This document shows, one piece after another, positions 4,085 through 34,448 of a stretch of 64,000 nt of DNA. This stretch comes from an uncultured virus (IMG/VR IMGVR_UViG_3300021247_000307). Taxonomy: Duplodnaviria; Heunggongvirae; Uroviricota; Caudoviricetes. Below the pieces are notes generated by a model, which saw only the letters and a program-made list of their open reading frames with translations, did not search any database and had not been told where the DNA came from. Both the position numbers and the translations under genes were made by a program. The stretch lies in IMG/VR virus record IMGVR_UViG_3300021247_000307. The stretch is one strand, 5' to 3'. Position 1 is the first letter of the stretch. The number at the start of each line of letters is the position of its first letter.

Positions 4085-4340
4085 ACTTATGGTTTATAGC
4101 GAAATAGTAAATAATTTCATCATCATTAATATCATCTGGTTCATCTTCTGACCATTCTAATGATTCTACAAAAGGTTTATCATCACGATAAGTTACTACA
4201 TGAATGACAAAAGGATATTCATTTTTTCCTTGTTTCCATGTACCTAGATAATCATGTCTAATACATTCAGCTTTTCTATCAATACGTAATCCTTCCATGT
4301 TTATTAGTTTAAAATATATAACGAATATCACACCAATCAA
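4074..4340 (-). CDS. hypothetical protein
   Basis: ORF in operon; true start probably MEGLR at about 4298. Confidence 0.5.
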   Translation of the reverse strand: MIGVIFVIYFKLINMEGLRIDRKAECIRHDYLGTWKQGKNEYPFVIHVVTYRDDKPFVESLEWSEDEPDDINDDEIIYYFAINHKYDI

Positions 4341-5172
4341 TCATACTACTATGTAGTTCTTTAAATTGATTAATCCATTTAGTTTTGTTCTTAACTTTAT
4401 ATCTAATGTTTAAGTCTCCAGATTGACTAATCTTATCTTCTTGTACTTCAGGATTCCATAACATATCTTCACCTGGAATATTGTTCTTTACATTATACTC
4501 ATGTTTCTGTTTATTATGTGTAAGAAATATAACTTCACAAGAGATATTAGACTTATAGTCATCTATAATAAGTCTGTTAACTTGATTAAATAATATCTTA
4601 TAATCATGTAGCCATGTATCAGTAACTATAACAGGACTAAAGTTAAGATGTACATCGTAACCAGCTTCAATAAACTTATTTACAGCTGTAATTCTATCTT
4701 TTATACTTGAAGTATTTGGTTCTAGTATAGAACTATACTTCTGTGGCATAAGACTAAATCTTATTCTAACTTTTCTTTCAGGATTAAATGATAAAAAATC
4801 TTCAGGAACAATTTTAGTTGCAAATGTTCCCATAGCTCTATGATGATTTTTAAAAAAATCAAAAATAGATTTCCATTTAAGCTGTTTTCTATGTAATCCA
4901 ATATCAGAATTACAACCAATATCATAAGTATAAAAGACTGGATGTGTTTGATTAGGTTTTTTTTCAGGAAGCCAAGTTACATGATTATTTATTGCTGTCA
5001 ATAAATCACCTACATTTTTAGCTATTGTAATAACTGCTACACCATGTCTTTTAACATAACAATAACTACAATTTAAAGCACATTCGTAAATAAAACTAGG
5101 ACTAATAAAATCACTACTTCTTCCTGATTCTTTAATATCTAAAGCTTTTCTAAATACTTCTTTAGTTTTCAT
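4309..5172 (-). CDS. spore photoproduct lyase-like radical SAM protein
   Basis: GRSSDFI, CxxxCxxC (CALNCSYCY), YDIGCNSD, FATK, RIRFSLMP, GYDVHLNFSPVI, EVIFLTH. Confidence 0.85.
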   Translation of the reverse strand: MKTKEVFRKALDIKESGRSSDFISPSFIYECALNCSYCYVKRHGVAVITIAKNVGDLLTAINNHVTWLPEKKPNQTHPVFYTYDIGCNSDIGLHRKQLKWKSIFDFFKNHHRAMGTFATKIVPEDFLSFNPERKVRIRFSLMPQKYSSILEPNTSSIKDRITAVNKFIEAGYDVHLNFSPVIVTDTWLHDYKILFNQVNRLIIDDYKSNISCEVIFLTHNKQKHEYNVKNNIPGEDMLWNPEVQEDKISQSGDLNIRYKVKNKTKWINQFKELHSSMIDWCDIRYIF

Positions 5173-5713
5173 AGTTTTTTAAGTATTTCCAAATAAAACC
5201 TCTTGCTGATTTACGTTCTCCTCTACAAACTCTTGTAATATTTTGTATAGGACACTTTACAAATTCAGAAGCTTCTTTTGCACTATTAAATATTCTAATA
5301 AATTCATTATTTAAAGATAATTGTACCGTAGGTTTCATATTAATTTCTTTTAACTTTATGATAATATTATTTAAACCTGTATCACGAGCGTGTTTTAAAT
5401 TTTCACTATATGTACACCATTCTAAATTTGAAATATGATTATCTGTTTTTATTCCATTAATATGATTAATACAATAGTTTTCTTGATAACCTTCAATAAA
5501 AGTTTTACCTACTAATCTATGTACTCTTTCTTTAAAATAAATATTATCTTTTCTTAAACTAATAGAAGGATAACCTGCTGAAAGAGGTGTTTTCATAATT
5601 CTCTCATACCATATTCTTCCATCAATTAAAATTCTTTTTAAAGATTTTATTCTACCATAATTAGAAACTTGATACAAACCTTCAAATCCTTTAATGTCTC
5701 GCCATTCTTCCAT
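5162..5713 (-). mobile_element. free-standing NUMOD4-HNH-NUMOD1 homing endonuclease
   Basis: EEWRDIKGFEGLYQVSNYGRIKS, VHRLV, NHINGIKTDNHISNLEWCT, FNSAKEA..ITRVCRG..ARGFIWKY. Confidence 0.9.
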
Positions 5714-5727
5714 AATGTTATTTTTAA

Positions 5728-5759
5728 CAAATATAAGGATTTATTAATAAACATCCAAA
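5728..5759 (-). promoter_or_regulatory. Bacteroidota housekeeping-sigma promoter for the HNH cassette
   Basis: TTTG-N20-TATATTTG ending 14 nt before the HNH ATG. Confidence 0.75.
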
Positions 5760-5763
5760 TATT

Positions 5764-5871
5764 TTTAAATAAACAACCGAAACCAAATGCTGGAGCCATG
5801 AAATCTGATGACCTACCGTTATCTCTAATCAACATAGATTTTCTTTGGGAATAGGTAATCAATGATTCCAT
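5764..5871 (-). pseudogene. orphaned original 5' end of the SPL-like gene
   Basis: RKSMLIRDNGRSSDFMAPAFGFGCLF aligns with RKALDIKESGRSSDFISPSFIYECAL of 4309..5172. Confidence 0.8.
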
Positions 5872-6292
5872 TTAGTTTAAAGAATATTATAGTGTAAAAT
5901 ATATCTCCTAGAAATTGATTTCTAAGAAATGGAAGTCCTGCAATATATGATGCTGATAAACTATTGTAGTATGAAGCACAAAATGCGTTAGTAATAAGAA
6001 AGAATATTATAGAGAAAGATATACTGTTTAACATTAACACTCCTGGAGTAGTATTAATTACAGTATATCTCGCTATAATAGTCAATATTATTATTGTTAG
6101 ATACACATACCAAGTGAATGTACCACTAATGAAATAATCACTAATTAACATTCCTAATATACTAATCATCAAAGACTTAATAAAGTCATGCTGAGTATTA
6201 TACAATATCAATCCGATTAATGGAGTGAAATTATATGGATGTGGAAGTAATCTTCCTAGTACTAAAATTAATATTGACAATGCTATTTTCAT
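5825..6292 (-). CDS. DUF6580-like multi-TM putative transporter
   Basis: RLLPHPYNFTPL, ISD, FFLITN, YIAGLPFLRNQFLGD; 5-6 hydrophobic helices. Confidence 0.75.
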   Translation of the reverse strand: MKIALSILILVLGRLLPHPYNFTPLIGLILYNTQHDFIKSLMISILGMLISDYFISGTFTWYVYLTIIILTIIARYTVINTTPGVLMLNSISFSIIFFLITNAFCASYYNSLSASYIAGLPFLRNQFLGDIFYTIIFFKLNGIIDYLFPKKIYVD

Positions 6293-6648
6293 TCTCTAAA
6301 TGTTTTTGGAAATGTTATAGGATATTTTTTAGCTACACAAACAACATCACCAAGATTATAACTTGCTCCATCATTTGAAATCCATTCTTTAGTATCAGGA
6401 ATCCAAGTGTAAGGAGAATCTAAAACTTCATGTACTACTAATACATTACTAACTGTTCTTTTAATCCCTACAAAGTATTCATCTAACTCTGTAGTTTCAG
6501 GATTAAATAACTTCCAATGTAAAGGTAAGAAATACTTTTCTTCATTTCCCATGTTTAGGTATGTTTTTATTGTTTTGTAATCAAATTCTTTATCAATCAT
6601 ACTACTGGTATCTAAATGGTTCTCCTGATAGTAAATATAGTAATACAT
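6289..6648 (-). CDS. hypothetical protein
   Basis: ORF; true start probably MIDKEF at about 6600. Confidence 0.55.
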   Translation of the reverse strand: MYYYIYYQENHLDTSSMIDKEFDYKTIKTYLNMGNEEKYFLPLHWKLFNPETTELDEYFVGIKRTVSNVLVVHEVLDSPYTWIPDTKEWISNDGASYNLGDVVCVAKKYPITFPKTFRE

Positions 6649-6817
6649 TCATTAAAGCATATATTGACATAAACAATGCTATAAAAACTAAAACTATATA
6701 AGTTAAAGGATTATAAGGATTATACCTATTTTTTGTAACTCCATTTATATTAGTTATACTTTGTTTTATACCTAATATTACTAATAATCTTCTTAATGTT
6801 TTCATACTTTTTCCCAA
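6602..6817 (-). CDS. small membrane protein
   Basis: NPYNPLTY followed by a TM helix. Confidence 0.6.
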   Translation of the reverse strand: MGKSMKTLRRLLVILGIKQSITNINGVTKNRYNPYNPLTYIVLVFIALFMSIYALMNVLLYLLSGEPFRYQ

Positions 6818-7107
6818 TATTTTACAGTAATAGTTTTTTCTTTTTGAGTTACTCTAGTTAAGATATCGATTTCAGTTTTATCAAAACCATAATTATCATC
6901 ATATACATACTGATTAGTTTCCCAAAATCCATATAATTGTTTATCAATATTTGGATAATACTTTTCATTAATTTCAACAATAGATTGTTTATAGAAAGTA
7001 GAACCTCGTCTGGGATTAACAAATGAATCATCATAAAAATCTTCTATTAATTCATCGAAATCTAATCCGTATTCTTCAGCAATCTTTTCATTAAGTTTGT
7101 TTATCAT
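6802..7107 (-). CDS. hypothetical protein
   Basis: 101-aa acidic ORF ending KEKTITVKYWEKV. Confidence 0.65.
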   Translation of the reverse strand: MINKLNEKIAEEYGLDFDELIEDFYDDSFVNPRRGSTFYKQSIVEINEKYYPNIDKQLYGFWETNQYVYDDNYGFDKTEIDILTRVTQKEKTITVKYWEKV

Positions 7108-7108
7108 A

Positions 7109-7381
7109 TCATTTAATGTTTTCGAGTGGATAAGCGTTTAAAATAGAGTCTGCGCTAATTAATATAGGATTGTCATAGTTATCATAGAAAGTTTTTTCTA
7201 GTACACAACATAGTTCTCCATCTTCTCCTTCTCCTAAATCTTTATACATTATAGAGTTATCATCTGCTGCTTTTAGTGCTGCCTGTACATGAAGTTTAGC
7301 AAACTCAATCATATTATTATAAATAGATTCAATACTAAAAGGTTTCCCTCTTAAAAATTCTTCTGCTGTTGGTATATTCAT
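7109..7381 (-). CDS. small conserved phage protein
   Basis: IPTAEEF..MIEFAKLHVQAALKAA..SILNAYPLENIK. Confidence 0.7.
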   Translation of the reverse strand: MNIPTAEEFLRGKPFSIESIYNNMIEFAKLHVQAALKAADDNSIMYKDLGEGEDGELCCVLEKTFYDNYDNPILISADSILNAYPLENIK

Positions 7382-7390
7382 TTTGTTTGT

Positions 7391-7645
7391 TTATTTACTA
7401 ATTTTTTCAACTTTATACTTGTTTATTTTTGCAACATGACGAATTAGTTGTTTATGAAATTTTGTTAAAATCTTATCATACATACTATCCGTTAATAAAT
7501 CACTAAATCTTAACACTTGAAGTGAATCAAATGTCTTTTCAAATTTACTGATTTTTTCATCACAAATAAATCCTTGTTTTTTAATTTGCTCACTTATTGG
7601 GTCAGCCAATAAACCATAGTGTATTCCTATGTGAAATGATTCCAT
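7391..7645 (-). CDS. hypothetical protein
   Basis: 84-aa ORF in tight array. Confidence 0.6.
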   Translation of the reverse strand: MESFHIGIHYGLLADPISEQIKKQGFICDEKISKFEKTFDSLQVLRFSDLLTDSMYDKILTKFHKQLIRHVAKINKYKVEKISK

Positions 7646-7663
7646 TTTGTTTTGTTTTAAGAG

Positions 7664-8020
7664 TTAATTTTCTTCATAAATAATTTCCATGCCATATTGC
7701 AAAGCAACTTCATGTTCAATTTTACAACCTCTTGCAGTTTCCCATCCTTTTGCAAAATAAACAGTACTGCATTTGCTCATATATTCAAGTGACTTTGCTA
7801 AAAAAAATAAAGGTATTTGAACAACTCCTCTTGAACTCATGGATTCTTGAGAATACCTATAATCTTTAAAGAAAGTATTTAAAACCTCTAAGTTTTCTTT
7901 TTTAGCATATTCAAGAAACTTGTTTTGAGCGTTAGTAATTTGTTCTTCTGTTAAGCCATTCATTGGCTGACTAATCATTATTTTTTTCATTGTTATTGTT
8001 TTAAGAGTTATTTTGTTCAA
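7664..8020 (-). CDS. DUF4406-like protein (nucleoside deoxyribosyltransferase-fold)
   Basis: MISQPMNG, VYFAKGWETARGCKIEHEVA; probable start MKKIM at 7990. Confidence 0.75.
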   Translation of the reverse strand: MNKITLKTITMKKIMISQPMNGLTEEQITNAQNKFLEYAKKENLEVLNTFFKDYRYSQESMSSRGVVQIPLFFLAKSLEYMSKCSTVYFAKGWETARGCKIEHEVALQYGMEIIYEEN

Positions 8021-8378
8021 TATTAATAGCTATCTGACGTAGAATTAGAATAGATAAATCATTTGGTGATATACCAGTAAATTCTATTGGGTCTTTTAAC
8101 CAACTACCTAGTTGTAATACAGCATCTTTGTATTCTTCAGAATTAACATCTGTAAGTCTTAATAGATATTCTGTTAAATTATCATCAAAAGATTGTAGTG
8201 CTGCATGAGTAGTTACATCTGCAATTCTCTTTAAATCACCAACTTTCCATATTAATGACGATATTCTTGTACTTGATGGTTTAGTTTGAACTAACCAAAT
8301 ACCATCTTGTAGTGTATCTGAATATCCAACAACTTTTTGATATCTACCATTCTTTTTCTTTCTATAAAGTTCCTCCAT
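8001..8378 (-). CDS. hypothetical protein
   Basis: LYRKxxNGRY..DGIWLV motif. Confidence 0.65.
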   Translation of the reverse strand: MEELYRKKKNGRYQKVVGYSDTLQDGIWLVQTKPSSTRISSLIWKVGDLKRIADVTTHAALQSFDDNLTEYLLRLTDVNSEEYKDAVLQLGSWLKDPIEFTGISPNDLSILILRQIAINIEQNNS

Positions 8379-8380
8379 GA

Positions 8381-8668
8381 TTATAATGAATTATCTAGTT
8401 TACTTTCAAGTTCATTAATTCTAGCTTTAAGCTCTTCATTACTTTCTGCATAAAGTTCAATAGTTTTTTCTAGTTTTTCATGAGCTTCTTCTAGTTCATG
8501 AATTTCTGTAATTAAATCTTCAATTACAGATTTAACTTCATCTTTAGCATCAGTAGCTTGTCTTTCTAAAACTCTGTTATACATTGTTTTCGTTTTTATA
8601 AGTTTCTTCGTAATATTTTTCTCCATCAAATATCCAATCTCCTTTTCTACGACCTGTATCAAAAGCAT
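8381..8668 (-). CDS. coiled-coil hypothetical protein
   Basis: Heptad-rich C-terminus; probable start MYNRV at about 8584. Confidence 0.55.
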   Translation of the reverse strand: MLLIQVVEKEIGYLMEKNITKKLIKTKTMYNRVLERQATDAKDEVKSVIEDLITEIHELEEAHEKLEKTIELYAESNEELKARINELESKLDNSL

Positions 8669-8777
8669 CTATTATTTGCTCCTGTTCCATTTCTTTGGCT
8701 TCTTCAAATATTTCACAATCATTGTCATACCCTTTTATTTGTTCTATTAACCATTCAACTGCCGTTTGTTTACTCAT
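8577..8777 (-). CDS. small conserved phage protein
   Basis: KQTAVEWL..EAKEMEQEQIIDAF..YYEETY. Confidence 0.7.
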   Translation of the reverse strand: MSKQTAVEWLIEQIKGYDNDCEIFEEAKEMEQEQIIDAFDTGRRKGDWIFDGEKYYEETYKNENNV

Positions 8778-9190
8778 TTTGTTTCTTTTTTAATTAATTT
8801 AATTAAACAAGCTATTTCAGCTTCTTCGTAAGTTTTAAACTCCCAATCTCCAGAAGGACAATTTTGAGGCATTGTATTATATTCTTCACCAGTTTCGCTA
8901 TTCCAGATAAAATAATTATAACCAAGTTCACGACTATGCTGATCTTTTGTTGCTTCTATTGATGCTTGCCAATTAAATTTTTCTCTAAACCATTTAAATA
9001 CCTGCTGTATTAATGGAGCTTTTAAATCTTTATCATACTTTTTATCCCATTTTACAAAATCTCCATCAAATGATGATGAAATTTTACTTCTAAGTAAATG
9101 ATAATCATTATAACCACAAATACATGGTTCATCGAATCCTAACTTTTTGAGTTGTAATGCAATCTCATAGCTTACAAATTCATTATTCAT
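8774..9190 (-). CDS. conserved phage protein
   Basis: EFVSYEIALQLKKLGFDEPC..APLIQQVFKWFREK..TYEEAE; related to the N-terminus of 23790..24242. Confidence 0.7.
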   Translation of the reverse strand: MNNEFVSYEIALQLKKLGFDEPCICGYNDYHLLRSKISSSFDGDFVKWDKKYDKDLKAPLIQQVFKWFREKFNWQASIEATKDQHSRELGYNYFIWNSETGEEYNTMPQNCPSGDWEFKTYEEAEIACLIKLIKKETK

Positions 9191-9193
9191 AGT

Positions 9194-9493
9194 TTATTTT
9201 TTTAAGTAAACTTCTAATAGTTGTTTTTTGCTATAAGTTTTAGAAGTATCTGAATGTAAATACCAATGGTCAAAGATGTTACTATAAGAATAAGTTCCTT
9301 CTATAAACTCTAAAAACCCTATAATGAAATCACTTTGTTTATCCATTTGCCATTTAGCACCATCAATAAATCCTTGTTTAAATATAGCATCTTCTAATTT
9401 TGTAGTTGGAATATCTCCTTTTTTGTTTGCATAAACTTCAGCAGCTTTTTCTAATTCATTTTCCATCCTTATCATATTTAACCCTGTCATCAA
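9194..9493 (-). CDS. hypothetical protein
   Basis: LEKAAE..GFIDGAKWQ motif. Confidence 0.6.
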   Translation of the reverse strand: MMTGLNMIRMENELEKAAEVYANKKGDIPTTKLEDAIFKQGFIDGAKWQMDKQSDFIIGFLEFIEGTYSYSNIFDHWYLHSDTSKTYSKKQLLEVYLKK

Positions 9494-9812
9494 ATTCAGG
9501 ATGTGTATAATGAAATTCAGTTAACATAGCTGCATTACACATTAAATGTGCTGCATGAAGTAATCCATCTTCAGGGTCTATATCTTCACCAAGACGAATG
9601 GCTTCGAGATGTCTCATTGCTGAAGCTATAACTTCTGTATAAGGCATACCTTTCTCCCAGTTTCTAGGTTCATATTTAGTAGCACCTACAGTCCATACTT
9701 TGGCATATTCTTCATTAGCTTTAGCTGGAATTAAATCATAACGCAATTTATTTGCATTATTACGCAACGCTCTTGCTGTTGTAGTCATATAATATTGTTT
9801 AATGTCATCCAT
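9456..9812 (-). CDS. dATP/dGTP diphosphohydrolase-like protein (DUF5664)
   Basis: KLRYDLIP, GATKYEPRNWEKG, RHL, GEDIDPEDGLLHAAHLMCNA. Confidence 0.85.
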   Translation of the reverse strand: MDDIKQYYMTTTARALRNNANKLRYDLIPAKANEEYAKVWTVGATKYEPRNWEKGMPYTEVIASAMRHLEAIRLGEDIDPEDGLLHAAHLMCNAAMLTEFHYTHPEFDDRVKYDKDGK

Positions 9813-10981: not shown

Positions 10982-11108
10982 AGTATTATTTTAATAGAGA
11001 GAGATGTACTAGACACCTCTCTCCATATTAACTATTGTAAACTAACCCACACATCATACATCTTCCATGTATTAACACGGAATCTCAATGTTCGTCTTTT
11101 CATAACGC

Positions 11109-11546
11109 TTAAGGATATTTAGTTTTGAAATTAGGTTTAACATAATGATTAGGTTTTTGTACTTTACCAGTTTCACGATGTTTTAGCACAAAGAATCCAT
11201 TAGAAGGACTATCAATTACACATTTCTTTTCAACAGCTTCTTTAGTTACTGCATCAAGACTTGTAAAACCTTTAGTCATGTTCGCATTAAACTTGATAGC
11301 TAGTGCTGCATCAGCATTAACTCCCATTGTTTGTAGTAATCGTACAGTAACCCATATTAAATCTACAGCTTCTTCAACAATATTAGGATTGTTATCTTCA
11401 GCAATAGCAATAGTAAGTTCTCTGTACTCCTCATCAATTAATTTAGCAGCATTAAGCTTTTCTTCCCATGACACATTAGCATCATAATTTTCTCTAACTG
11501 TTAGTCCAAATCTATCGGACCATTCTCTAACTAGTCTTTCCATCAT
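11109..11546 (-). CDS. MazG-like NTP pyrophosphohydrolase
   Basis: LIDEEYREL..EEAVDLIWV..ANMTK..GKVQKP. Confidence 0.8.
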   Translation of the reverse strand: MMERLVREWSDRFGLTVRENYDANVSWEEKLNAAKLIDEEYRELTIAIAEDNNPNIVEEAVDLIWVTVRLLQTMGVNADAALAIKFNANMTKGFTSLDAVTKEAVEKKCVIDSPSNGFFVLKHRETGKVQKPNHYVKPNFKTKYP

Positions 11547-12121
11547 AGCGATAAAATTTCATTTTTTAAGTTAATCATTGAATCTAATTCACCATCAATC
11601 TCACAATCATAGAAATTAGATAATTCTTCTTTCAGTGTTTGTGCTTTACTTAATACTTTAGCACCATAATGTTGATAATCATTATTAGGTGCATAGAGAA
11701 AGAAGTTAAATAATTCATCTGGTTGATACATTTCAGAGTATCTACTTTGCATAAACATATCATAAGCATGTTTATGATTTTCATGAATATCAAATTCCAG
11801 TACTACTAAATCATTGTTAATGAATGGATAATAACTCTTTAAGATATTACGTTCATATAACATTTTAGTAGCTTTCTCTAGCATTGCTACATCGCTAAAT
11901 CTTTTGTCGATTAGCATGAATATCTTGTATGGGCATACTTCATCTATACCTAAACAAAAATTCATATTTAATCCTTTCAACATAAAACCTAGCTTTGGGT
12001 CGTAAGCTTTTAGTGAATGTGCTAGATATAGTCTAGTTCTGTTAAACACCAACACAGGTTCTTTTGGATTGTTAAATAAATCAATCGATAGTGTTGGAAT
12101 TGTAAATGGTGTCATACGCAT
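11543..12121 (-). CDS. hypothetical protein (replication module)
   Basis: 192-aa ORF with a YSEMY motif. Confidence 0.65.
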   Translation of the reverse strand: MRMTPFTIPTLSIDLFNNPKEPVLVFNRTRLYLAHSLKAYDPKLGFMLKGLNMNFCLGIDEVCPYKIFMLIDKRFSDVAMLEKATKMLYERNILKSYYPFINNDLVVLEFDIHENHKHAYDMFMQSRYSEMYQPDELFNFFLYAPNNDYQHYGAKVLSKAQTLKEELSNFYDCEIDGELDSMINLKNEILSL

Positions 12122-13058
12122 TGGTAGTTAATCGTCCGTTAGTAATAAAGATACCCCTATCAACATCAACATCAGGATTAGATAAATGCCAATTATAGTT
12201 GTTAATAATCTGTTTGATACCAGGAACTCTCATATCTTCAATAAACTCATTAGCAGTACCTTTAGGAATACCATCATACGCAACTGTTAAGTCTTTAAGA
12301 GATAACGTATATAATAATGGTGGTTCATTAGTAACATGACTAACTACTAAGAATTGTAGAGGAAAATCCTGATGATAACTATACCATGCAGCTTGTATAT
12401 CGTATCTAAACTTTCTTAAACTAAAATTAAAATCTTTAACACTACCATTAGTGTACTTAATATCATACAATCCAGTTTCTGATACAGCATCATACAATCT
12501 TTTAGCTTCTATACCATTGTAACTAAAATAGTTAGGAACTTGGAAACCAGTCCATGACTTAACAATATGAGATGTAAATGGATGTGAAGAAACCATACTA
12601 ACTTGATGTAGTATTCTCTCATAATCATTTCTACTAATAATAGTTTTACCTTTAGCTTTCCACAAATCTTCATAAAATACTTCTAGTTTTAATAAGTTGT
12701 TCCATACTGTATCTTCCTTCCAACTACCACCATAACCTTCTTGACTTGCAGACAATAGTAATGGTTCTTTGAGTGTATCTAATGGTACATAGGATTCTAA
12801 TGTATCAAATACTAACTTAATAACAGATTTAGCTGAACCTCTAGTGTAGTTATCTTCATTACTAATGTAGAACATAGTATCAAAGTGTTCAGGATACGTT
12901 AGTAAACACTCGAAAGCATTACCATGATTCATAGCAAACTGGTCAACCCAATACTTTTTGTTTACATAAGTACCATAACCTTTAGATAATGCTGCTAATT
13001 TGCTATAGTGCAAAGCATCATGTTGCCTATAGTCTTTGATGAGATTTAACATATTCAT
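12081..13058 (-). CDS. PD-(D/E)XK exonuclease, RecE/ExoVIII (DUF3799)-like
   Basis: YSKL, GNAFECLL, KRLYD..YDIK, FRYDIQAAWY. Confidence 0.7.
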   Translation of the reverse strand: MNMLNLIKDYRQHDALHYSKLAALSKGYGTYVNKKYWVDQFAMNHGNAFECLLTYPEHFDTMFYISNEDNYTRGSAKSVIKLVFDTLESYVPLDTLKEPLLLSASQEGYGGSWKEDTVWNNLLKLEVFYEDLWKAKGKTIISRNDYERILHQVSMVSSHPFTSHIVKSWTGFQVPNYFSYNGIEAKRLYDAVSETGLYDIKYTNGSVKDFNFSLRKFRYDIQAAWYSYHQDFPLQFLVVSHVTNEPPLLYTLSLKDLTVAYDGIPKGTANEFIEDMRVPGIKQIINNYNWHLSNPDVDVDRGIFITNGRLTTNAYDTIYNSNTID

Positions 13059-13452
13059 TTAGAAATAATTTAAAATCTTCCATGCGCATAATTACTAATT
13101 CATCTAATACTTGTTCTTTTACAGTAACTTTCTTAGTCATTCTAGTAAATAATAATGGTATTTCTCCAGGTTTAATACGCATAGTTAGTAATGAAGAAAT
13201 ATCTATAGAGATAGTATTCTTCCCTTTAATCATTGTCTTTTTACATTGTACTTTAAGACGTTGAATATAGTTTGGAACAGTATCTCTATAGAATACATCA
13301 ATTCCTTCTCCATCTAACGGAGTGTTCTTTGTAGTAGAGATTTCATAAGTCTTATGATTTTTGTTATTAAATGCTTCTAGTTTGAATATTGAAGCTAAGA
13401 ATCTAATAACATCATAATTCCATTTATCTCCTTGTCTCTTATTTTTTATCAT
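13027..13452 (-). CDS. putative Holliday-junction resolvase / PD-(D/E)XK nuclease
   Basis: NKRQG, LDGEGIDV, VQCK. Confidence 0.6.
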   Translation of the reverse strand: MIKNKRQGDKWNYDVIRFLASIFKLEAFNNKNHKTYEISTTKNTPLDGEGIDVFYRDTVPNYIQRLKVQCKKTMIKGKNTISIDISSLLTMRIKPGEIPLLFTRMTKKVTVKEQVLDELVIMRMEDFKLFLNEYVKSHQRL

Positions 13453-13949
13453 TATGCTAATTTTAGTACACCATCGTTTATCAATGTTTGCACAATATAA
13501 TTAGCTATTTCTGAATTATCTAATTTTGATATACAAAATCTTTTACTTTCTACATATTCTTTAGATAATCTTGCGTATGTAAAATTACAATCTTCTACTG
13601 TAGCTTGTAATACAGCTTGAAATAATAACCATATATCATCAGGGCAATCAAATAAGAATATTTTACCATACTGTACTAAAATAACAATATCATTAGTATT
13701 CCTATTAATAACAACAATATCATAATTATAACTATACTTTTTAGCTTTAGTACTTACTAAATCATATTCAGGACTTAATGCTATATGTTTTCTACTTTCT
13801 AAAGTACCTAAAATAGATGTTTTTATAAAGTTATCTACAATACGACAATGATTAATACCTGCATAACATTTATCAACAATATCTCTTTTTCTTGAGTTAA
13901 ACATCGTACTAGATGTTGGCATCATATCTGGTATATAGTGGAATGTCAT
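13452..13949 (-). CDS. hypothetical protein directly downstream of the E1-like gene
   Basis: 165-aa ORF overlapping the ThiF gene. Confidence 0.6.
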   Translation of the reverse strand: MTFHYIPDMMPTSSTMFNSRKRDIVDKCYAGINHCRIVDNFIKTSILGTLESRKHIALSPEYDLVSTKAKKYSYNYDIVVINRNTNDIVILVQYGKIFLFDCPDDIWLLFQAVLQATVEDCNFTYARLSKEYVESKRFCISKLDNSEIANYIVQTLINDGVLKLA

Positions 13950-14562
13950 AGACTTGAATATTAGTTTTTATGTTAACAATATGTTTGTTGATTAACTCTA
14001 CTACTTTACCATGACACATATTAGCTACGTATCTAGTTTGTGTAAATGTACAGTTTACTGGTGCTGGTTCTTCATCAGATAAACCTTTAGTTCTATATTC
14101 TGTCTCTAGTTCAAAACGTTTATTGCTAGAAATAAAATATATCTCAAAGTATTCTGCTAACATCCTAATATCAATAAAGAAGTTAGTATTACTATGAACT
14201 TTATCAAACCACTCATCAAACATTTTAACTCTAACATCCATTTTATCAGGACAAGCAATTACATTATCACGTAACCAATGAGTATCCCAATAAAAACTAT
14301 TGTAATATACTTCATTAGGATAGAAATCTAACTCTTGTTGTAATGCAGCAGTTTTCTTCATTCCTATTTGTGTAGGATAGTAGCCTTGTGGTATGCAGTT
14401 GTGCATTTCTACTGTATCTCCATCATAGACTTCTAAATCATGTCCATTCAATGCAAGATTTACAGCAACACCTTTACCTACACCACCAAGACCTACTATA
14501 GTAATAGGTAGTTTATAGTCAGCCCATATAGCTGACTTATATCTTTTATCAAAGCTCGTCAT
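13909..14562 (-). CDS. ThiF/MoeB (E1-like) adenylyltransferase
   Basis: IVGLGGVG, YDGDTVEMHN..Q, GMKK, CPDKMDVR, IDIRM, candidate catalytic Cys in PVNCT. Confidence 0.88.
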   Translation of the reverse strand: MTSFDKRYKSAIWADYKLPITIVGLGGVGKGVAVNLALNGHDLEVYDGDTVEMHNCIPQGYYPTQIGMKKTAALQQELDFYPNEVYYNSFYWDTHWLRDNVIACPDKMDVRVKMFDEWFDKVHSNTNFFIDIRMLAEYFEIYFISSNKRFELETEYRTKGLSDEEPAPVNCTFTQTRYVANMCHGKVVELINKHIVNIKTNIQVYDIPLYTRYDANI

Positions 14563-15559
14563 AACCTAGTTTAAAAATGTCAATATATGATTTCATGTCT
14601 TTGTAGAACTGTGTATGTGAGAATCGTTTTAAGTCTGTTAATAACTGATTAGCATTAAATGGAGTAACAGCTTTAATAAAACTATCTATATCATATCCTT
14701 TCTTAGTATAGTTATTAAGAAGTTGAATCTTTTCAGCATAGTTAGATGTAGAGAACTCAAAGTATTCATCTAAATCTTCCAAGTAAGTAGCTACTTCTTG
14801 TTTAACATTCCAACTCTTATCAGCCCATGGTTTATGATTCCATATTCTAGTTTTATCATCCCATAGTGAAGTTTGAGAAGTAGCTTTCATCTTAAATGCT
14901 CTAGCTTTATTTACTACTTCTAATGCTTCAGTAATATCAGAATAATCTGTATTATTGAACTTAGTCTTAATAGAGTAGATGTTAATCTTCTTTTCAACTT
15001 CTACTTCTCTAGTAACTATTTCACCAAACCATTTGTAGTTAGTAACATTCTTTGGTTGTTCTTCTTCTACACTTAATAATGCTGTAAATTCTAGCTTATG
15101 ATTACAGATAACACTTAGATAAGTACCATTGTAGTTAGAGTTATTAGCTGTAAGTTCTGCTAAGTCTGTTCCTGATGGACTAGTACCCATATCAATATGA
15201 CTATGAATTAATCCTTGATAACAATCCATAATTCTATCAGCATTATTCATAACATAATTAGATAATACACTAGATAATTCAGGAAATTCATTATAGTCAA
15301 TATTAGCAACCATACTATTTTCTGGACCTTTACCCATGTAGCATATATCTACAGTTTCTAGTGTTTTGTTATCAATCTTCTTGTAGAATAATATACCAAT
15401 CCATTCTGCTTTCTTACCAGTAGCTTCATTAGCAGCTATTATTTTCTTAATAGTACTATCATTAACGATTAAAGTAATACCGTTCAAGGTTTGATAAGAA
15501 AGAGTTTGTGCTTGTGATGGCGGTTGCCATTTGTTTGAGTTGTTGTACGACGTTGTCAT
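14549..15559 (-). CDS. JAB/MPN+ metallopeptidase
   Basis: EWIGILF and HSHxxMxxxPSGTD JAMM motif, followed by YLSVI. Confidence 0.85.
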   Translation of the reverse strand: MTTSYNNSNKWQPPSQAQTLSYQTLNGITLIVNDSTIKKIIAANEATGKKAEWIGILFYKKIDNKTLETVDICYMGKGPENSMVANIDYNEFPELSSVLSNYVMNNADRIMDCYQGLIHSHIDMGTSPSGTDLAELTANNSNYNGTYLSVICNHKLEFTALLSVEEEQPKNVTNYKWFGEIVTREVEVEKKINIYSIKTKFNNTDYSDITEALEVVNKARAFKMKATSQTSLWDDKTRIWNHKPWADKSWNVKQEVATYLEDLDEYFEFSTSNYAEKIQLLNNYTKKGYDIDSFIKAVTPFNANQLLTDLKRFSHTQFYKDMKSYIDIFKLGYDEL

Positions 15560-16328
15560 TTATGTTTGATTTAGTAATAGATTTAAGGTGTTCACCATTA
15601 AAACCTTCTACAGTAATATAATAATCTCTGTCTTTAAAGTTTATAATATAGTCTTGATACTTATCAATAATTTTATTTAGGTTTTGTGCTAAATAAAGTT
15701 GTTTATCTCTTACGTTAGTTGTTAGACTATTTAGAATAGCTTCATCATCCCATTCAATAGTAACTAAATCACCAAATATAGTTTTCCGAATATTCTTATC
15801 TTTAATCATAGAAGTCTCTAGTTCACCTTGTAAATTATTTTTAAACTTAAGACTTGATAATGAATCTTGACCATTACTATAAAATAAACTAGAAATAGGT
15901 GTATAGCAATCTGTTGAGTTTTCATTATGTAACCAAAAATCAGTAACATTAATTACTGCAATTAAACTTTCTATATCAGTGAAATTGTAAAATATATTAA
16001 GTTTACCATAACAATAACCATTTGTTTTAAATGCTATTCTATCTTTAGCTAAATGTGAATGTGTAAATGTACTCATTGATTGATTTACATAATCTGATAC
16101 TGTATAGCGTAACTTAGTAAAAGAAAACATTTTCTCATTATAAGCATAATGAATAAAAACATCATAGATAGTATAAGTATCACCTGTAAGATTCTTAATA
16201 GTTACTTCAGGATAATAAATAAGTAATTCAGTCTCTTTAAATTCATATCTATCAGGATACATAGAATCTAAGTATTCTTCTAGTAATGCAAAATCTTTAT
16301 GAGATATTACTTCATCTTTAGTAATCAT
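15462..16328 (-). CDS. putative prokaryotic E2-like protein
   Basis: HSHL-x9-GYCYG resembles the E2 HPx...GxxC active site; lies between the Ubl-like and JAB genes. Confidence 0.55.
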   Translation of the reverse strand: MITKDEVISHKDFALLEEYLDSMYPDRYEFKETELLIYYPEVTIKNLTGDTYTIYDVFIHYAYNEKMFSFTKLRYTVSDYVNQSMSTFTHSHLAKDRIAFKTNGYCYGKLNIFYNFTDIESLIAVINVTDFWLHNENSTDCYTPISSLFYSNGQDSLSSLKFKNNLQGELETSMIKDKNIRKTIFGDLVTIEWDDEAILNSLTTNVRDKQLYLAQNLNKIIDKYQDYIINFKDRDYYITVEGFNGEHLKSITKSNINDNVVQQLKQMATAITSTNSFLSNLERYYFNR

Positions 16329-16340
16329 AATTAATAGTTT

Positions 16341-16368
16341 AAAAGGGAGTAGCTTTTACACTACTCCC
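16341..16368 (-). terminator. intrinsic terminator after the Ubl-like gene
   Basis: GGGAGTAG-loop-CTACTCCC-TTTT on the minus strand. Confidence 0.65.
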
Positions 16369-16381
16369 CATCATTAAATAA

Positions 16382-16951
16382 TTACTTCACCAAATGTGGA
16401 TAGTCTTTCTTCAATCTGTTTAAGAATCTCAACTTATTCACATCAGTCAATAACTGTAAACTGTATTCTATCTCGAACACTCTATCTTCCAACTGATTGA
16501 TAACTTCACTTAGTTTAGACACTTGGTCATCAGATACTAATGAAGTAGCAGTAGCAGGATTTAAGTATTCATAAGCTCTAGTAAGCATTACGATTAAATC
16601 ATTCTTTGGTACACTCATGTACTTGCTATGAATAATATCTAGTAATGTTTCATCATCATTCTCTACAGCTGCAACCCTGTATTCCTTAGCCATTTTCTTC
16701 AAATCATTGTAAGCCATTGTAGTAAAATCAATAGTAGCAGCACTAGATTTAGCTGGAGTTACAGTAACAACCTTCAAATTATCAGGTATATCATTGTTAG
16801 GGTCACTCAAATCAGTATTACCGTTAATAGCCATACCATCTTCAAAGAGATTATTCTCTTTAAGATATTCACGTAAGTCAGCAATTTTCTTACCATTAAA
16901 TTCGTGAATAGTTACATTGTTAGACAATGTGGAAGTGATTAAGATTTTCAT
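16382..16951 (-). CDS. putative ubiquitin-like (beta-grasp) protein with helical/coiled-coil C-terminal extension
   Basis: About 72-aa beta-beta-alpha-beta pattern (KILITS, VTIHEF, KIADLREYLKE, LKVVTVTPAKSSA); first gene of the E2-JAB-E1 cluster. Confidence 0.55.
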   Translation of the reverse strand: MKILITSTLSNNVTIHEFNGKKIADLREYLKENNLFEDGMAINGNTDLSDPNNDIPDNLKVVTVTPAKSSAATIDFTTMAYNDLKKMAKEYRVAAVENDDETLLDIIHSKYMSVPKNDLIVMLTRAYEYLNPATATSLVSDDQVSKLSEVINQLEDRVFEIEYSLQLLTDVNKLRFLNRLKKDYPHLVK

Positions 16952-16956
16952 CTGTG

Positions 16957-17151
16957 TTAAATTGTTTTAAAAGTAAATAAAAAAGGATTTGTTGTTGTAG
17001 ATAATATATAAATAATACTCTCGTCTGTGTAAATACGACCATTAGTTTGTTCAAACATAAGTTTACATACAGTTCCTAACGTATTATTCACTATCATTTT
17101 GTTATTATTTCTCATGCAACCATAAGAAAATGATTCTTTAAAAGTTACCAT
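16957..17151 (-). CDS. hypothetical protein
   Basis: 64-aa ORF. Confidence 0.4.
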   Translation of the reverse strand: MVTFKESFSYGCMRNNNKMIVNNTLGTVCKLMFEQTNGRIYTDESIIYILSTTTNPFLFTFKTI

Positions 17152-17798
17152 TGTATCTTCTCATTATTTTGATGTAGACAATGAGCATCAACAGCTTTCC
17201 ATATTGAAGTATTGATTTCTAAATCAGGATTATACTTCTTAGCAACTGGATGAATAGTACATAAACCATTGTGTACTAATGGATAGAAACTTTGAGCTTC
17301 ATTACCAAAGAATACAAATAGTGGTCTTACAGTATCATCTAAGTATTTTATTAATGCTGTAGTAAATGGTTTCCATAATTTAACATGTGCTACTGGAGAA
17401 CCATTCTTTGGAACTGTTAATGCTGTATTTAGTAGTAATATACCTTGTGCTTCCCAATGTAGTAAGTCTTTCTTTAGACTAAATGAGTAATCATCAAGGT
17501 ATTCTTGTAAACTCTGTTCTATGACTGAAAGAGTTGGTGTCATAATCATACTTGAAGTAGCTAATCCATTAGCATAATTATTCTGATATGGAGATAGAAA
17601 TACAAAAACCACTCTAACATCATAGATGGAGTGGTTTAATGCTCTAAATATATCCTTTGCATCAGGATAATACATTGTTCTATTTACACTATCTTTTATA
17701 GGTTTTAAATCTACTTTATCAAATAGTGGATAGTAAGAATTGTGAACTACTTTTGGGTATGAGTTGACGTATGAGGTGTCTTGTTTCTGTGTGACCAT
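17145..17798 (-). CDS. ung: uracil-DNA glycosylase family 1-like protein with variant motif
   Basis: VRVVF-FLSPY, ANGLA, WEAQGILLLNTALTV, HVKLWKPFT, FFGNEAQ, HP, IQW. Confidence 0.8.
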   Translation of the reverse strand: MVTQKQDTSYVNSYPKVVHNSYYPLFDKVDLKPIKDSVNRTMYYPDAKDIFRALNHSIYDVRVVFVFLSPYQNNYANGLATSSMIMTPTLSVIEQSLQEYLDDYSFSLKKDLLHWEAQGILLLNTALTVPKNGSPVAHVKLWKPFTTALIKYLDDTVRPLFVFFGNEAQSFYPLVHNGLCTIHPVAKKYNPDLEINTSIWKAVDAHCLHQNNEKIQW

Positions 17799-18684
17799 AC
17801 GTTTTATAGAAATCAGATATATCTTTTGGATATCCTTCAGGAATAGATATACCTATAAAGTGATTGTTAGAAGATAATCTTTTACAAGCATTAAGACCTG
17901 TAGTATCATTATCCATCAACACATAGACTTTATTGTATTTCATGAATGGTAATAAATCAGGATTGGAAGTCTCTGAATGTATGAATCTACCACTATAACC
18001 TAAGTTATCGAGTACCATATAATCTTTTGCTGATTTAGTAATGATAACAGTATCTGTAATCTTGTTTGTACCACCGATAGTGTTCTCGGTAAAGTTGCTT
18101 AGGAATTTAAACTGACTATTAGGTTTGTATATCTTAATCTTACTATTTACAACAATAGCTGTAGTTTCATCATAAACTTTTACTTTCTGTAAGAAATCTG
18201 GACATGAATGAGTATTAAATGAATAAGAACTTACAGCATAACAGTTTTCTAATTCTAGTTGTGATTTAGATATGCCATACTCCGACCAATAGTCTTTATG
18301 ACGTTGATTCCATGAACCTTTAGTAAATGATAGTTGAAACTTAAAGTCTTTATTTACCTTATTAGATAATGATAACTTTTGGTTTGTATAACTAAAATCT
18401 TGTTTGATTATTTCTAATGCTCTAGTATAATCGCAATGATATTTAATCATTACAGCAGTTACACATGTTATACCATGAAATCTATCATCAGCAAAATCAG
18501 CTAGTAATATAACATTATCATGTTCATATAACCAACAACCAGGTTTAGTATCATGTCTTAGTGTATTAACCATTTTAGTATTAAGTTTAACAGTTACACC
18601 TAATAGTGACTGCCATACTTTCATTTGGTCTATTTTGCTGTAAACATCATAACTTTCAGATGCTACAATACCATTGAGTTTCAT
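17719..18684 (-). CDS. DNA primase (TOPRIM)
   Basis: LRHDTKPGC, IITKSAKDYMVL, SET, MDNDTTG, KDISDF. Confidence 0.85.
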   Translation of the reverse strand: MKLNGIVASESYDVYSKIDQMKVWQSLLGVTVKLNTKMVNTLRHDTKPGCWLYEHDNVILLADFADDRFHGITCVTAVMIKYHCDYTRALEIIKQDFSYTNQKLSLSNKVNKDFKFQLSFTKGSWNQRHKDYWSEYGISKSQLELENCYAVSSYSFNTHSCPDFLQKVKVYDETTAIVVNSKIKIYKPNSQFKFLSNFTENTIGGTNKITDTVIITKSAKDYMVLDNLGYSGRFIHSETSNPDLLPFMKYNKVYVLMDNDTTGLNACKRLSSNNHFIGISIPEGYPKDISDFYKTYGHTETRHLIRQLIPKSSSQFLLSTI

Positions 18685-18697
18685 AATTGGAATTTAT

Positions 18698-18729
18698 AAA
18701 AGAAAGCGTCACACAATGTAACGCTTTCT
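18698..18729 (-). terminator. intrinsic terminator
   Basis: AGAAAGCGT/ACGCTTTCT stem followed by a T run on the minus strand. Confidence 0.6.
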
Positions 18730-18740
18730 AGTGAATAAGT

Positions 18741-19493
18741 TTACCAATCAGGTGCGTCAGTTGTTTCTGTTGATTGCAACGGAGTGTATTCTTGGTATTT
18801 AACGCTAAAGAAACTGTTAGTAATCTTGTTACCAGCTTTTTCAGCATTCTCTACTTGACGTTGGAATGCAGTAATAGCTTTCTGTGGAACAATAAGATTA
18901 CCATTGTTTACTTCCGAGCGATAGATATATCTGAATAGTGAACTCTGTGCTAGAGTACCATCAGCTTTTTCTCTAACTACTAGAGGTAATACAATATGAC
19001 AGTTATTAGCATTAACATGGTCAATCAATGATGTAAAATCAGATTTACCTTTTAATACTGAATCAAAGTCTAGCTTATTAGCTTTCATATCTTTCAAGAA
19101 AGTCTCTTGATTAGACTGATAAGACAATAGCTGACGTAAGAACTCATACCAATCAATCTCACCAATTCTAGCTTTAACTGGTTCATTCTCTTTAGTAAAG
19201 AATGACCAATCTCTACCATTGGAGTTCTTGATTTCAAACATACTGGATTCATCTTTGATATAGAATGAACGCCAATCTCCTTTAGTTGACATATAAAGAT
19301 GACTTCCAGTACTTGATACTACAACTTCATCTTTAACTGTTACACCAACTAGAAAATCACCATCTTGAAACTTGAATGGAATCCATAGAGATTCACCATT
19401 ATCAGACAGTTTTACAGAGGTAGGTTTGCATAGTGCTAAACCTGTAAATAGGGACTTCTCTTCCACTCCCATGTTACCTTCAAAATTCATCAT
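18741..19493 (-). CDS. putative single-stranded DNA-binding / replication protein
   Basis: Position between ATPase and primase; acidic tail ending DAPDW. Confidence 0.5.
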   Translation of the reverse strand: MMNFEGNMGVEEKSLFTGLALCKPTSVKLSDNGESLWIPFKFQDGDFLVGVTVKDEVVVSSTGSHLYMSTKGDWRSFYIKDESSMFEIKNSNGRDWSFFTKENEPVKARIGEIDWYEFLRQLLSYQSNQETFLKDMKANKLDFDSVLKGKSDFTSLIDHVNANNCHIVLPLVVREKADGTLAQSSLFRYIYRSEVNNGNLIVPQKAITAFQRQVENAEKAGNKITNSFFSVKYQEYTPLQSTETTDAPDW

Positions 19494-20010
19494 AAGCTTC
19501 TACATTATTAGCTGGTTCAAAAATAGGTTCTTCTATAACTACATTAGTTGGAATACTTGTTAGAGTTTCTAGTTCTGTCTCTATTGCTGGAGTATAATCT
19601 TGTTGTAATACTTCCATTCTAAAGATACCTTCTGCTTCATTCTCTACTACTAACTTATACTCATTATCTTTTAATGCTGCATGAATAGCTTTAGAAGATA
19701 CTTTACCATTCATTCCTAAACGATAAACCATCTTTCTAGTTTCAAATGCTTGAGCTAGTTCAGGATTTACTTCCTTAACTTTGTCAAATGCAGCAATAAG
19801 AAATGTACCATTGTTGTTAATAATAACTACTTGAGTAGGTATTTCAACACCAAGTAACTCTTGTGCTTTAGTGTTAAAATGAATAGATGCAGAACGTTGT
19901 CCTTCACCAATAGCTAATTTAGTAATAACTGGAGTATCAGCATACTTCTCTTTAGATACAGTTTTTACTCTAGTTTTTCCTTCTAATGTGAAATTAGAAA
20001 ATGTAATCAT
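19480..20010 (-). CDS. hypothetical protein with acidic tail
   Basis: 176-aa ORF in the replication module. Confidence 0.65.
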   Translation of the reverse strand: MITFSNFTLEGKTRVKTVSKEKYADTPVITKLAIGEGQRSASIHFNTKAQELLGVEIPTQVVIINNNGTFLIAAFDKVKEVNPELAQAFETRKMVYRLGMNGKVSSKAIHAALKDNEYKLVVENEAEGIFRMEVLQQDYTPAIETELETLTSIPTNVVIEEPIFEPANNVEAYDEF

Positions 20011-32117: not shown

Positions 32118-32144
32118 ATATATTAGTTTTGGTTGTTACAAAGA

Positions 32145-34440: not shown

Positions 34441-34448
34441 CACAATCA

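Follow-up and report, generated by a model that had tools for sequence, protein, structure and literature searches.

A conserved gene cassette of crAss-like phages with a putative ubiquitin-like conjugation pathway

Organization and distribution of the cassette

The 64,000-nucleotide stretch of DNA analyzed here (the window) belongs to an uncultured virus of the Caudoviricetes (IMG/VR record IMGVR_UViG_3300021247_000307). Between positions 13452 and 16951 it carries a cassette of five genes, all on the minus strand, which might together encode a ubiquitin-like (Ubl) conjugation cascade:

16951-16382, minus strand: gene 1, 189 amino acids (aa), putative Ubl precursor
16328-15462, minus strand: gene 2, 288 aa, E2-like protein
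15559-14549, minus strand: gene 3, 336 aa, JAMM/MPN+ metallopeptidase
14562-13909, minus strand: gene 4, 217 aa, E1/ThiF-type adenylating enzyme with a minimal single domain
13949-13452, minus strand: gene 5, 165 aa, function-unassigned partner, conserved in position and variable in sequence

Genes 1 and 2 are separated by a gap of 53 nucleotides, and overlaps of 98, 14 and 41 nucleotides connect genes 2 and 3, genes 3 and 4, and genes 4 and 5, respectively. An initial annotation, made from the sequence alone, had described co-oriented genes, which is correct for all five, and an overlap of three genes, whereas the overlapping chain in fact comprises four (genes 2-5). The motifs that it had named are all present at their places in the proteins of 288, 336 and 217 aa. 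Upstream of the cassette lie genes for a DNA polymerase, helicases, a Sak4-like ATPase, a primase and a UDG-like protein, and downstream genes for a PD-(D/E)XK nuclease of the exonuclease VIII type and a MazG-like pyrophosphatase. Flanked by the primase and UDG-like genes and, at its other end, by the PD-(D/E)XK exonuclease gene, the cassette is located within the replication module, as had been proposed.

The gene organization was compared in 88 sources, i.e., the window and 87 further loci. The order Ubl-E2-JAB-E1 on one strand was found in 81 of the 88 sources, a count that is conditional because the loci were picked via homology to E1 or E2, and that includes duplicates (L003 and L008 are one contig, L006 and L048 one phage). 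Five of the seven exceptions (L001, L002, L040, L060, L079) are cut at contig ends, and in the other two (L058, L076) a single-sequence search for the JAB protein was empty in a gap of 1.2-2.2 kb. The same four-gene order on one strand in 81 sources, combined with motif residues that are kept in 72/72 to 79/80 of the relatives (see below), is beyond chance, and synteny is conserved among relatives.

A scan of IMG/VR with an E1 profile yielded 294 relatives, so that the cassette is no rarity; 80 of these loci were kept and are part of the 88 sources. Searches of a phage collection with the cassette DNA and, by tblastn, with gene 2 returned nothing, and E1 alone found relatives. The cassette is syntenic in the IMG/VR relative L003, in crAss001 (gp79, gp78, the 'metalloprotease' gp77, the 'ThiF' protein gp76, and then gp75), in DAC15, in cr128_1 and in Flavobacterium phage FpV4 (gp53 to gp49), and in all five it lies between primase/UDG genes and an exonuclease gene. 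The genes of crAss001 and FpV4 are true homologues in the same order and at the same genomic place, which are labelled only as hypothetical, 'metalloprotease domain' or 'thiamine biosynthesis protein ThiF'. The statement of the initial annotation that ThiF and MPN genes are annotated in crAss-like genomes therefore holds for crAss001 with gp76 (ThiF) and gp77 (metalloprotease). The homologous clusters differ from the window in the larger size of the E2-like protein (420-444 aa versus 288 aa) and in the end of the proposed tag, which is Ser-Gly or Gly-Gly in crAss001 and FpV4 and Ala-Ala in the window.

A scan of the genomes of 185,579 species with the one usable motif of the E2-like family led to three loci, in each of which the full cassette is surrounded by phage genes, e.g., for primase, exonuclease VIII and endolysin. 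As far as that motif reaches, the E2-like family is phage-borne. In the openly searchable literature (subscription papers, e.g., the 2018 survey of the crAss-like family, lie outside it) we found no description of the cassette in phages. The accessible part of a 2026 preprint (10.64898/2026.03.05.709809) mentions in passing a phage protein family that structurally matches UBA5.

Two observations on the surroundings of the cassette are added here. A 639,747-base contig that is labelled as a metagenome-assembled genome of Bacilli (L088) carries at 5093-9213 a full Ubl-E2-JAB-E1 cassette. Its neighbours encode a UDG-like protein (phrog_12143) on one side and a protein with Ig-domain/endolysin likeness on the other. 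The locus could represent a prophage, or else phage DNA that was wrongly assembled into the contig or wrongly binned; it would extend the host range of the cassette past Bacteroidota. In the window, the UDG-like gene is separated from gene 1 by an open reading frame (ORF) of 64 aa (16957-17151, minus strand). L003 has a counterpart of 60 aa at the same place (4203-4385); the first six residues of the two are identical and the rest has diverged. No match of the 64-aa protein was found among the Pfam or PHROG families.

Proteins encoded by the cassette

The following features within the genes are referred to below:

16736..16951, minus strand: N-terminal domain of gene 1, residues 1-72, predicted to be beta-grasp-like; it ends with ..T-P-A-K-S-S-A71-A72, the proposed mature C-terminus
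16577..16717, minus strand: SAP/HeH-like helix-extended-helix stretch of gene 1, residues ~79-125, tentative, from a weak Pfam SAP match and the alignment pattern
16005..16061, minus strand: candidate E2 active-site loop H90-S-H92 ... C106-x-G108 of gene 2, between strand 4 and helix 2
14050..14052, minus strand: Cys171 codon of gene 4, candidate E1 thioester cysteine, invariant in 74 of 74 relatives

Judged from its sequence, gene 4 codes for an adenylating enzyme of the E1 type, an assignment that we regard as firm. The enzyme has a minimal single domain, and its ATP/Mg site is intact. The protein matched Pfam ThiF (PF00899) with 37.1 bits, above the cut-off of 28.1 bits (E 2.5e-9), and crAss001 gp76 matched the same family with 58.3 bits. 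A profile built from 29 members of the gene 4 family matched UBA5 at E 3e-13 and also MccB, PaaA, UBA6, ThiF, NEDD8 E1, MoeB, TcdA, Cap2, Uba4 and Citrobacter BubCD. No NCBIfam model reached its cut-off, and the best rows were short ThiF-type ThiS adenylyltransferases (NF006395, E 4.9e-13, 49 vs 159 bits; TIGR02354, E 3.7e-9, 37 vs 152 bits). The stretch G24-L-G-G27 (GxGGxG) and Cys171 are present. R7, G24, G26 and G27 are each kept in 73 of 74 non-identical relatives, and D47, D49, N55, Q59, K70, D106, R111 and Cys171 in all 74. From what is known of MoeB and ThiF, we take the Arg (as Arg finger), Asp, Asn, Gln and Lys residues to serve in adenylation and Cys171 to be the equivalent of the crossover-loop cysteine.

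In most relatives, the E1 protein has an N-terminal extension of ~60-200 residues (~165 aa in crAss001 gp76, which is encoded at 5545-6696 of locus L004). These extensions align poorly with each other except for a short I-P-x-N-S stretch directly before the E1 domain. The E1 proteins of the window and of FpV4 are devoid of an extension.

The assignment of gene 3 as a JAMM metallopeptidase with a complete active-site motif is likewise firm as read from its residues. E52, H119-S-H121, S129 and D132 show the canonical JAMM spacing HxHx7Sx2D, and E52, H119, H121, S129 and D132 were kept in 72 of 72 relatives. The match to Pfam Prok-JAB (PF14464) amounted to 20.2 bits (E 5.8e-4), below the cut-off of 25 bits, and that to the PADLOC JAB model had an E-value of 0.005. 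The JAMM/MPN+ domain covers residues ~30-165 and is 32% identical to that of crAss001 gp77. No family match was obtained for the second, fast-evolving region (residues 166-336), and a PDB sequence search with the protein gave nothing relevant.

Gene 2 is characterized by the motifs T-H90-S-H92 and G-Y-C106-Y-G108. We found 53 close relatives, on contigs of up to ~100 kb, and a profile search of 1.84 billion representatives returned 48 proteins at E ≤0.001; a second profile-guided homologue search added at least seven further sequences. The distant relatives are mostly proteins of 300-540 aa that match residues ~12-124. H92, C106 and G108 are the sole invariant residues across 62 aligned family sequences, and each of H90, H92, C106 and G108 is retained by 79 of 80 locus-derived relatives. 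No Pfam family matched gene 2 at E ≤0.1 or 36 distant relatives at E ≤0.01, and NCBIfam, PADLOC and a PDB sequence search gave no match to an E2 family. A single PHROG row (E 0.0014) has no annotated function, the ESM Atlas contained no usable match, and the top five matches in BFVD (E 7e-9 to 2e-7), from crAss-like phages, are likewise uncharacterised.

A first AlphaFold run with an alignment of 18 sequences reached a pLDDT of only 50 and was discarded. With an alignment of 62 sequences that included the distant relatives, a model (m854ffc0ad2a0) with a mean pLDDT of 86.1 and a pTM of 0.74 was obtained. It comprises a UBC-like domain (residues ~5-150) and a C-terminal domain (~160-288) of unassigned fold. 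The former consists of a helix (H13-23), a four-strand meander (E28-30, E34-45, E51-62, E69-75) and a second helix (H119-134), with His92 and Cys106 in the long loop between E69-75 and H119-134. In E2 enzymes, the loop that connects strand 4 with helix 2 carries the HPN...Cys elements. A Foldseek search with the model gave nothing significant, the best rows being the UEV domains of TSG101 (E 0.14). A structure search of 48,161 chains that was independent of Foldseek reached a best Z of 4.6 (Ube2K, Ubc13, BubB, UbcH5b) and none ≥5, values which, according to the tool's own warning, are by themselves no proof of a shared fold. Among the 50 matches listed, 27 are E2, UEV or RWD proteins by title; CBASS CdnG-E2 (Z 3.8) and Citrobacter BubB are listed as well. 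BubB (9eav_D, residues 242-361) aligned over 102 residues with a root-mean-square deviation of 3.8 and 20% identity (Z 4.6). Re-scoring of the Foldseek list led to the same fold class, with UEV, E2, UFC1 and Atg3 at Z ≤4.6. A UBC-like fold, as had been proposed for this protein, is predicted by the model, and the structural matches to it are weak. Because one fold class dominates the matches, the topology fits and an invariant His...Cys pair is located in the loop, we consider gene 2 with moderate confidence to be a likely, not a certain, E2-like protein.

We infer that gene 1 may encode the Ubl precursor; this is the weakest link of the cassette. According to prediction, the N-terminal domain of the protein is followed by a variable linker, then by the SAP/HeH-like stretch and finally by a helical region at the C-terminus. 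Twelve close relatives were found, and in 84 of the 88 sources a profile homologue immediately precedes the E2-like gene. No significant Pfam, PHROG, NCBIfam or PADLOC family was found for gene 1, and no Ubl family with its N-terminal fragments in Pfam. The ESM Atlas contained its own cluster only, and PDB sequence searches with two gene 1 profiles gave nothing relevant. An alignment-averaged Chou-Fasman profile, which is a crude measure, indicated the order strand-strand-helix-strand-strand for the N-terminal 70-95 residues, and the alignment itself can be read in the same way. In the alignment columns of A71 and A72, 70 of 75 relatives have Ser and 71 of 75 have Gly, respectively. The domain ends with ...K-x-x-[KR]-S-G in the relatives, with K-S-G-G in FpV4 and with Ala-Ala in the clade of the window, and directly past this conserved pair of small residues the family sequence turns variable.

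The initial annotation had described the 189-aa protein as beta-grasp-like. It is not a free-standing Ubl, as the pair of small residues is internal (71-72) and the protein does not end with Gly; its layout is rather that of a precursor-like fusion. For Bub, the accessible part of the report (10.1101/2024.11.21.623953) demonstrates that a JAMM protease cuts a Ubl fusion after a conserved Gly, and for Cap2 that of Jenson 2023 (PMC10097602) describes acceptance of a C-terminal Gly or Ala. These precedents make the precursor layout plausible. A predicted complex of E1 with residues 1-72 of gene 1 scored 0.25 against a mark of 0.32 and, since it was run without controls, was counted neither way. 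Four of 29 family members matched Pfam SAP weakly (best E 0.022, below significance), three matched PC4 below the threshold over 20 residues (E 0.0012-0.004) and one matched DIX. The PC4 match is confined to one clade and was judged to be a local chance similarity.

At the position of gene 5, a same-strand ORF of at least 90 aa starts -80 to +400 nucleotides from the E1 stop codon in all 86 sources with an E1 gene. These ORFs fall into groups, and hhalign links none of them to the form of the window. The possibility that gene 5 of the window belongs to the crAss001 or the FpV4 type was rejected (hhalign probability 0.5% and 0.1%, respectively; a single weak BLASTP segment, E 0.021). No family was found for gene 5 in Pfam, PHROGs, PADLOC or NCBIfam, and no DUF6527. 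In the one pair that was used for a comparison of rates, window and L003, the flanking genes are 69-96% identical, gene 1 72% and E1 72%. The corresponding values are 40% for the E2-like protein (30% in its C-terminal half), 48% for the JAB protein (34% in its C-terminal half) and 26% for gene 5. This pattern is as expected if the C-terminal domains of the E2-like and the JAB protein and gene 5 set specificity.

Proposed pathway, alternative explanations and related systems

On balance, we lean towards the view that the five genes form a phage-borne ubiquitin-like conjugation cascade. Whereas the catalytic equipment is apparent from sequence and model, we infer every transfer step. The JAMM peptidase would cut the gene 1 precursor after Ala71-Ala72 (Ser-Gly in most relatives) and thereby free a beta-grasp-like tag of ~72 residues from its SAP-like/helical extension, comparable to the action of BubC on BubAB. 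E1 would then adenylate the new C-terminus of the tag and load it on Cys171, from where it could be handed to Cys106 of the E2-like protein. The latter would join the tag to a target, and the peptidase could reverse the tagging. The fast-evolving C-terminal domain of the E2-like protein and perhaps gene 5 may help in the choice of the target. As targets, proteins of host defence or host DNA metabolism are conceivable, as are replication proteins of the phage. DNA-associated targets are suggested by the position in the replication module and by the DNA-binding-type motif in gene 1. It is conceivable, and for the present only a tentative idea, that Crassvirales-type phages of Bacteroidota own a complete Ubl conjugation system that covalently tags DNA-associated proteins of host or phage during replication. 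Equally tentatively, this system might combine a tag precursor and a peptidase for maturation and erasure with a minimal E1 and with an E2 that brings its own fast-evolving targeting domain, in abundant gut phages such as crAss001 as well as in the freshwater phage of the window.

Several points weigh against a conjugation cascade. No E3, target or conjugate is known. Gene 1 lacks structural or family support for a beta-grasp in the Pfam, PDB and profile searches, its weak Pfam matches (PC4, SAP) are to DNA-binding domains, its cleavage site is deduced from conservation alone, and in the clade of the window the tag would end with Ala-Ala and not with Gly. Gene 2 matches no E2 sequence family (UQ_con, Prok-E2) in Pfam, NCBIfam or PADLOC, and its E2 fold matches are weak with all Z values below 5, whereas best Z values of 7-8 are usual even among models that have no clear Foldseek match. 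The synteny counts depend on the selection via E1/E2 and contain duplicates. Three metatranscriptome runs from two studies yielded contigs that cover the cassette, but these may reflect carry-over of DNA into the RNA libraries, because they also span the whole 9-kb stretch.

Three other explanations were weighed. An unlikely one takes gene 1 for a DNA-binding replication protein (PC4-like/SAP) and not for a Ubl, so that the E1-like, UBC-like and JAMM proteins would act elsewhere, either in adenylation of the C-terminus of a peptide or protein, as in MccB and PaaA, or with the UBC-like protein as a non-catalytic scaffold. It is in line with the PC4 and SAP matches, which are the sole family hints for gene 1, and with the E1 profile, which matches MccB (2.5e-12) and PaaA (2e-11) nearly as well as UBA5. 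The weak E2 fold match would fit a scaffold, and UEV and RWD proteins are non-catalytic members of the E2 fold, but the invariance of His92 and Cys106 speaks against a dead one. The PC4 match is sub-threshold, short and limited to the clade of the window, whereas most relatives have the Ser-Gly tail, the predicted order of strands and helix is that of a Ubl, and gene 1 directly precedes the E2-like gene in nearly all sources. We consider it decidedly unlikely that the cassette serves counter-defence by subverting a Bil, Bub or type II CBASS system of the host, e.g., through deconjugation by the JAMM protein or charging of a decoy tag. According to the available parts of the reports, host systems of the same enzyme class act against phages (Jenson 2023, PMC10097602; 10.1101/2024.11.21.623953; Hor 2023), and the fast evolution of the C-terminal halves of the E2-like and JAB proteins and of gene 5 fits an arms race. 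A full set of E1, E2 and tag exceeds, however, what deconjugation needs. Moreover, in 81 of the 88 sources the cassette has its fixed place within the replication module and not among variable accessory genes, and similarity to Cap3 or BilC does not extend past the JAMM motif.

Very unlikely, in our view, is a sulfur-carrier pathway after the models of ThiS/ThiF, MoaD/MoeB, CysO/Mec and TtuB/TtuC. In such a pathway, the small protein would be adenylated by E1 and converted to a thiocarboxylate that supplies sulfur for a nucleotide, a cofactor, DNA or tRNA, and the JAMM protein would only mature the carrier. The best NCBIfam rows of E1 are ThiS adenylyltransferases, as mentioned above, but both scored far below their cut-offs. 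Sets of JAB, E1 and Ubl without conjugation are known, as reported in the accessible part of Iyer 2006 (PMC1779556). The window is rich in genes of nucleotide metabolism (ThyX, dCMP deaminase, a MazG-like protein, a MazZ-like domain). Sulfur-transfer partners were searched for by a Pfam scan of 72 of the 89 window ORFs of at least 70 aa and of the 64-aa ORF; the other 17 ORFs belong to the structural arm, and nine of them were scanned against PHROGs only. Neither a cysteine desulfurase, rhodanese, ThiG/H or MoaE nor a PP-loop thiolase was found among the Pfam-scanned ORFs, in agreement with the initial annotation, which had seen no such partner. In addition, E1 is devoid of a rhodanese domain, and a sulfur-carrier function would leave the always-present UBC-like protein with its invariant His and Cys without a role.

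Prokaryotic Ubl-E2-JAB-E1 operons were first catalogued by Iyer, Burroughs and Aravind (PMC1779556, accessible part), and we read the cassette as a new, phage-borne variant of these operons. The initial annotation had matched it to Bil, Bub and CBASS. This is appropriate for the gene content (E1, JAMM, a UBC-like predicted fold with His and Cys), but not for the architectures by which these systems are defined, none of which was found.

The comparison with type I Bub (6E.1; Citrobacter BubAB-BubCD-BubE) draws on the accessible part of the report by Ye, Gong, Chambers and Corbett (10.1101/2024.11.21.623953). Both systems combine Ubl, E2, JAMM and E1 with one extra protein, and in both a C-terminal Ubl extension is removed by a JAMM protease after a small residue, which is demonstrated for Bub and proposed for the phage. 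BubB is among the top structural matches of gene 2, and BubCD is matched by the E1 profile (E 1.2e-5). The Ubl-E2 fusion, the JAB-E1 fusion and the DUF6527 protease that define type I Bub were not found in the phage cassette: it has four separate genes in place of the two fusions, the Ubl extension is a SAP-like/helical region and not an E2, and gene 5 has no match to DUF6527 (BubE). Furthermore, Bub forms oxyesters with an E1 that lacks a catalytic Cys, whereas Cys171 of E1 and Cys106 of the E2-like protein are invariant in the phage family. Finally, Bub is bacterial and linked to defence, while the cassette is phage-borne.

Bil (BilA Ubl, BilB E2, BilC JAB, BilD E1) resembles the cassette in having four separate genes of the same classes in one operon. 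As described in the accessible part of 10.1101/2024.11.21.623953, BilD is a multi-domain protein with an inactive and an active adenylation domain and a Cys domain, whereas the phage E1 is a 217-aa protein with a single ThiF domain and hence falls outside the Bil architecture. There is no sequence-family link between the two, and Bil belongs to the anti-phage systems of the host and tags a tail protein of the phage. With type II CBASS, the cassette shares the E1, E2 and JAB chemistry and, according to the accessible part of PMC10097602, a C-terminal Gly or Ala is accepted there. Cap2 is matched by the E1 profile (E 4e-7), and the PADLOC E1-E2 models match gene 4 (E 2.4e-6). Cap2 is an E2-E1 fusion, whereas E1 and E2 are separate in the phage, and CBASS conjugates a CD-NTase that has no beta-grasp. 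The set of CD-NTase, Cap2 E2-E1 fusion and Cap3 that defines the system was not found, and neither a CD-NTase nor a CBASS effector was present among the Pfam-scanned ORFs.

PRTRC (NCBIfam TIGR03734-03742; operon type 6d, Iyer et al. 2006) is similar in being a Ubl/E2/E1-type cassette among phage replication genes. The phage E1 weakly matches TIGR03736 (E 1.6e-6, 27.7 bits vs a cut-off of 144.75). Among 15 proteins scanned, there was no match to PRTRC B, C, E, F or ParB, and PRTRC A was hit insignificantly only, by the JAB proteins of crAss001 and FpV4 (E 0.05-0.08). None of ThiF, A, B and C was thus found above the NCBIfam cut-offs. The phage cassette differs from PRTRC in its JAB protein with a classical JAMM motif and in an E2-like protein with a classical upstream His.

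In bacteria, Ubl-like conjugation is so far associated with anti-phage defence (Bil, Bub, type II CBASS), and a conserved cascade owned by phages would show the same chemistry in the hands of a virus. If true, it would be the first E1-E2-Ubl pathway that a phage encodes and uses in infection, a mirror image of Bil, Bub and CBASS, and it would define two unannotated families, the phage E2-like family and the Ubl-precursor family. The cassette occurs in the cultivable pairs crAss001/Bacteroides intestinalis, DAC15/B. thetaiotaomicron and FpV4/Flavobacterium psychrophilum. Because it is present there, unrecognised under the labels 'thiamine biosynthesis protein', 'metalloprotease' or 'hypothetical', the proposal is directly testable.

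Further features of the window

On the plus strand, an arm with the terminase, portal and major head genes begins at ~35 kb. The nearest named relatives of this structural arm are Cellulophaga phage phi14:2 (29% identity of the terminase) and crAss-like Bacteroides phages. The GC content of the window is ~0.25-0.33. At ~32000-35000, the coding strand changes from minus to plus and both GC skew and AT skew flip their sign. The replication arm meets the structural arm here, and an origin or terminus may also be located at this place.

Near-identical DNA was detected in freshwater/aquatic metagenomes, namely in 20 runs from 12 studies, 14 of which runs contained at least half of the sampled words. 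For the part 11000-20000, the phage recurs with ~95-99% likeness in freshwater/aquatic metagenomes of many studies. This occurrence identifies it as a freshwater relative of the crAss-like phages and not as a gut phage.

Outside the cassette, a 613-aa protein (24421-26262, minus strand) belongs to the PHROG DNA polymerase family phrog_1252 (E 1.4e-140) and has no Pfam family at E ≤0.001. A second JAB-fold protein with a RadC-like JAB domain (PF04002, E 1.2e-31) is encoded at 28934-29392 (minus strand). The 118-aa protein at 9456-9812 (minus strand) matches PF18909, the N-terminal domain of dATP/dGTP diphosphohydrolase (E 3.9e-32), which we take to be a domain of the MazZ enzymes of 2-aminoadenine (Z-genome) phages. 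No family match to a PurZ-like adenylosuccinate synthetase was found among the window ORFs scanned. Genes related to the nucleotide pool are located at 607-1988, 3441-3902 and 11109-11546 (minus strand) and comprise DUF932, ThyX (Thy1, E 2.3e-39), a dCMP/cytidine deaminase (E 1.1e-23) and a MazG/PRA-PH-like pyrophosphatase. At 4309-5172 (minus strand), a spore-photoproduct-lyase-like protein (PF20903, E 1.3e-23) is encoded, whose gene adjoins that of a NUMOD4/HNH homing-type endonuclease (5162-5713, minus strand).

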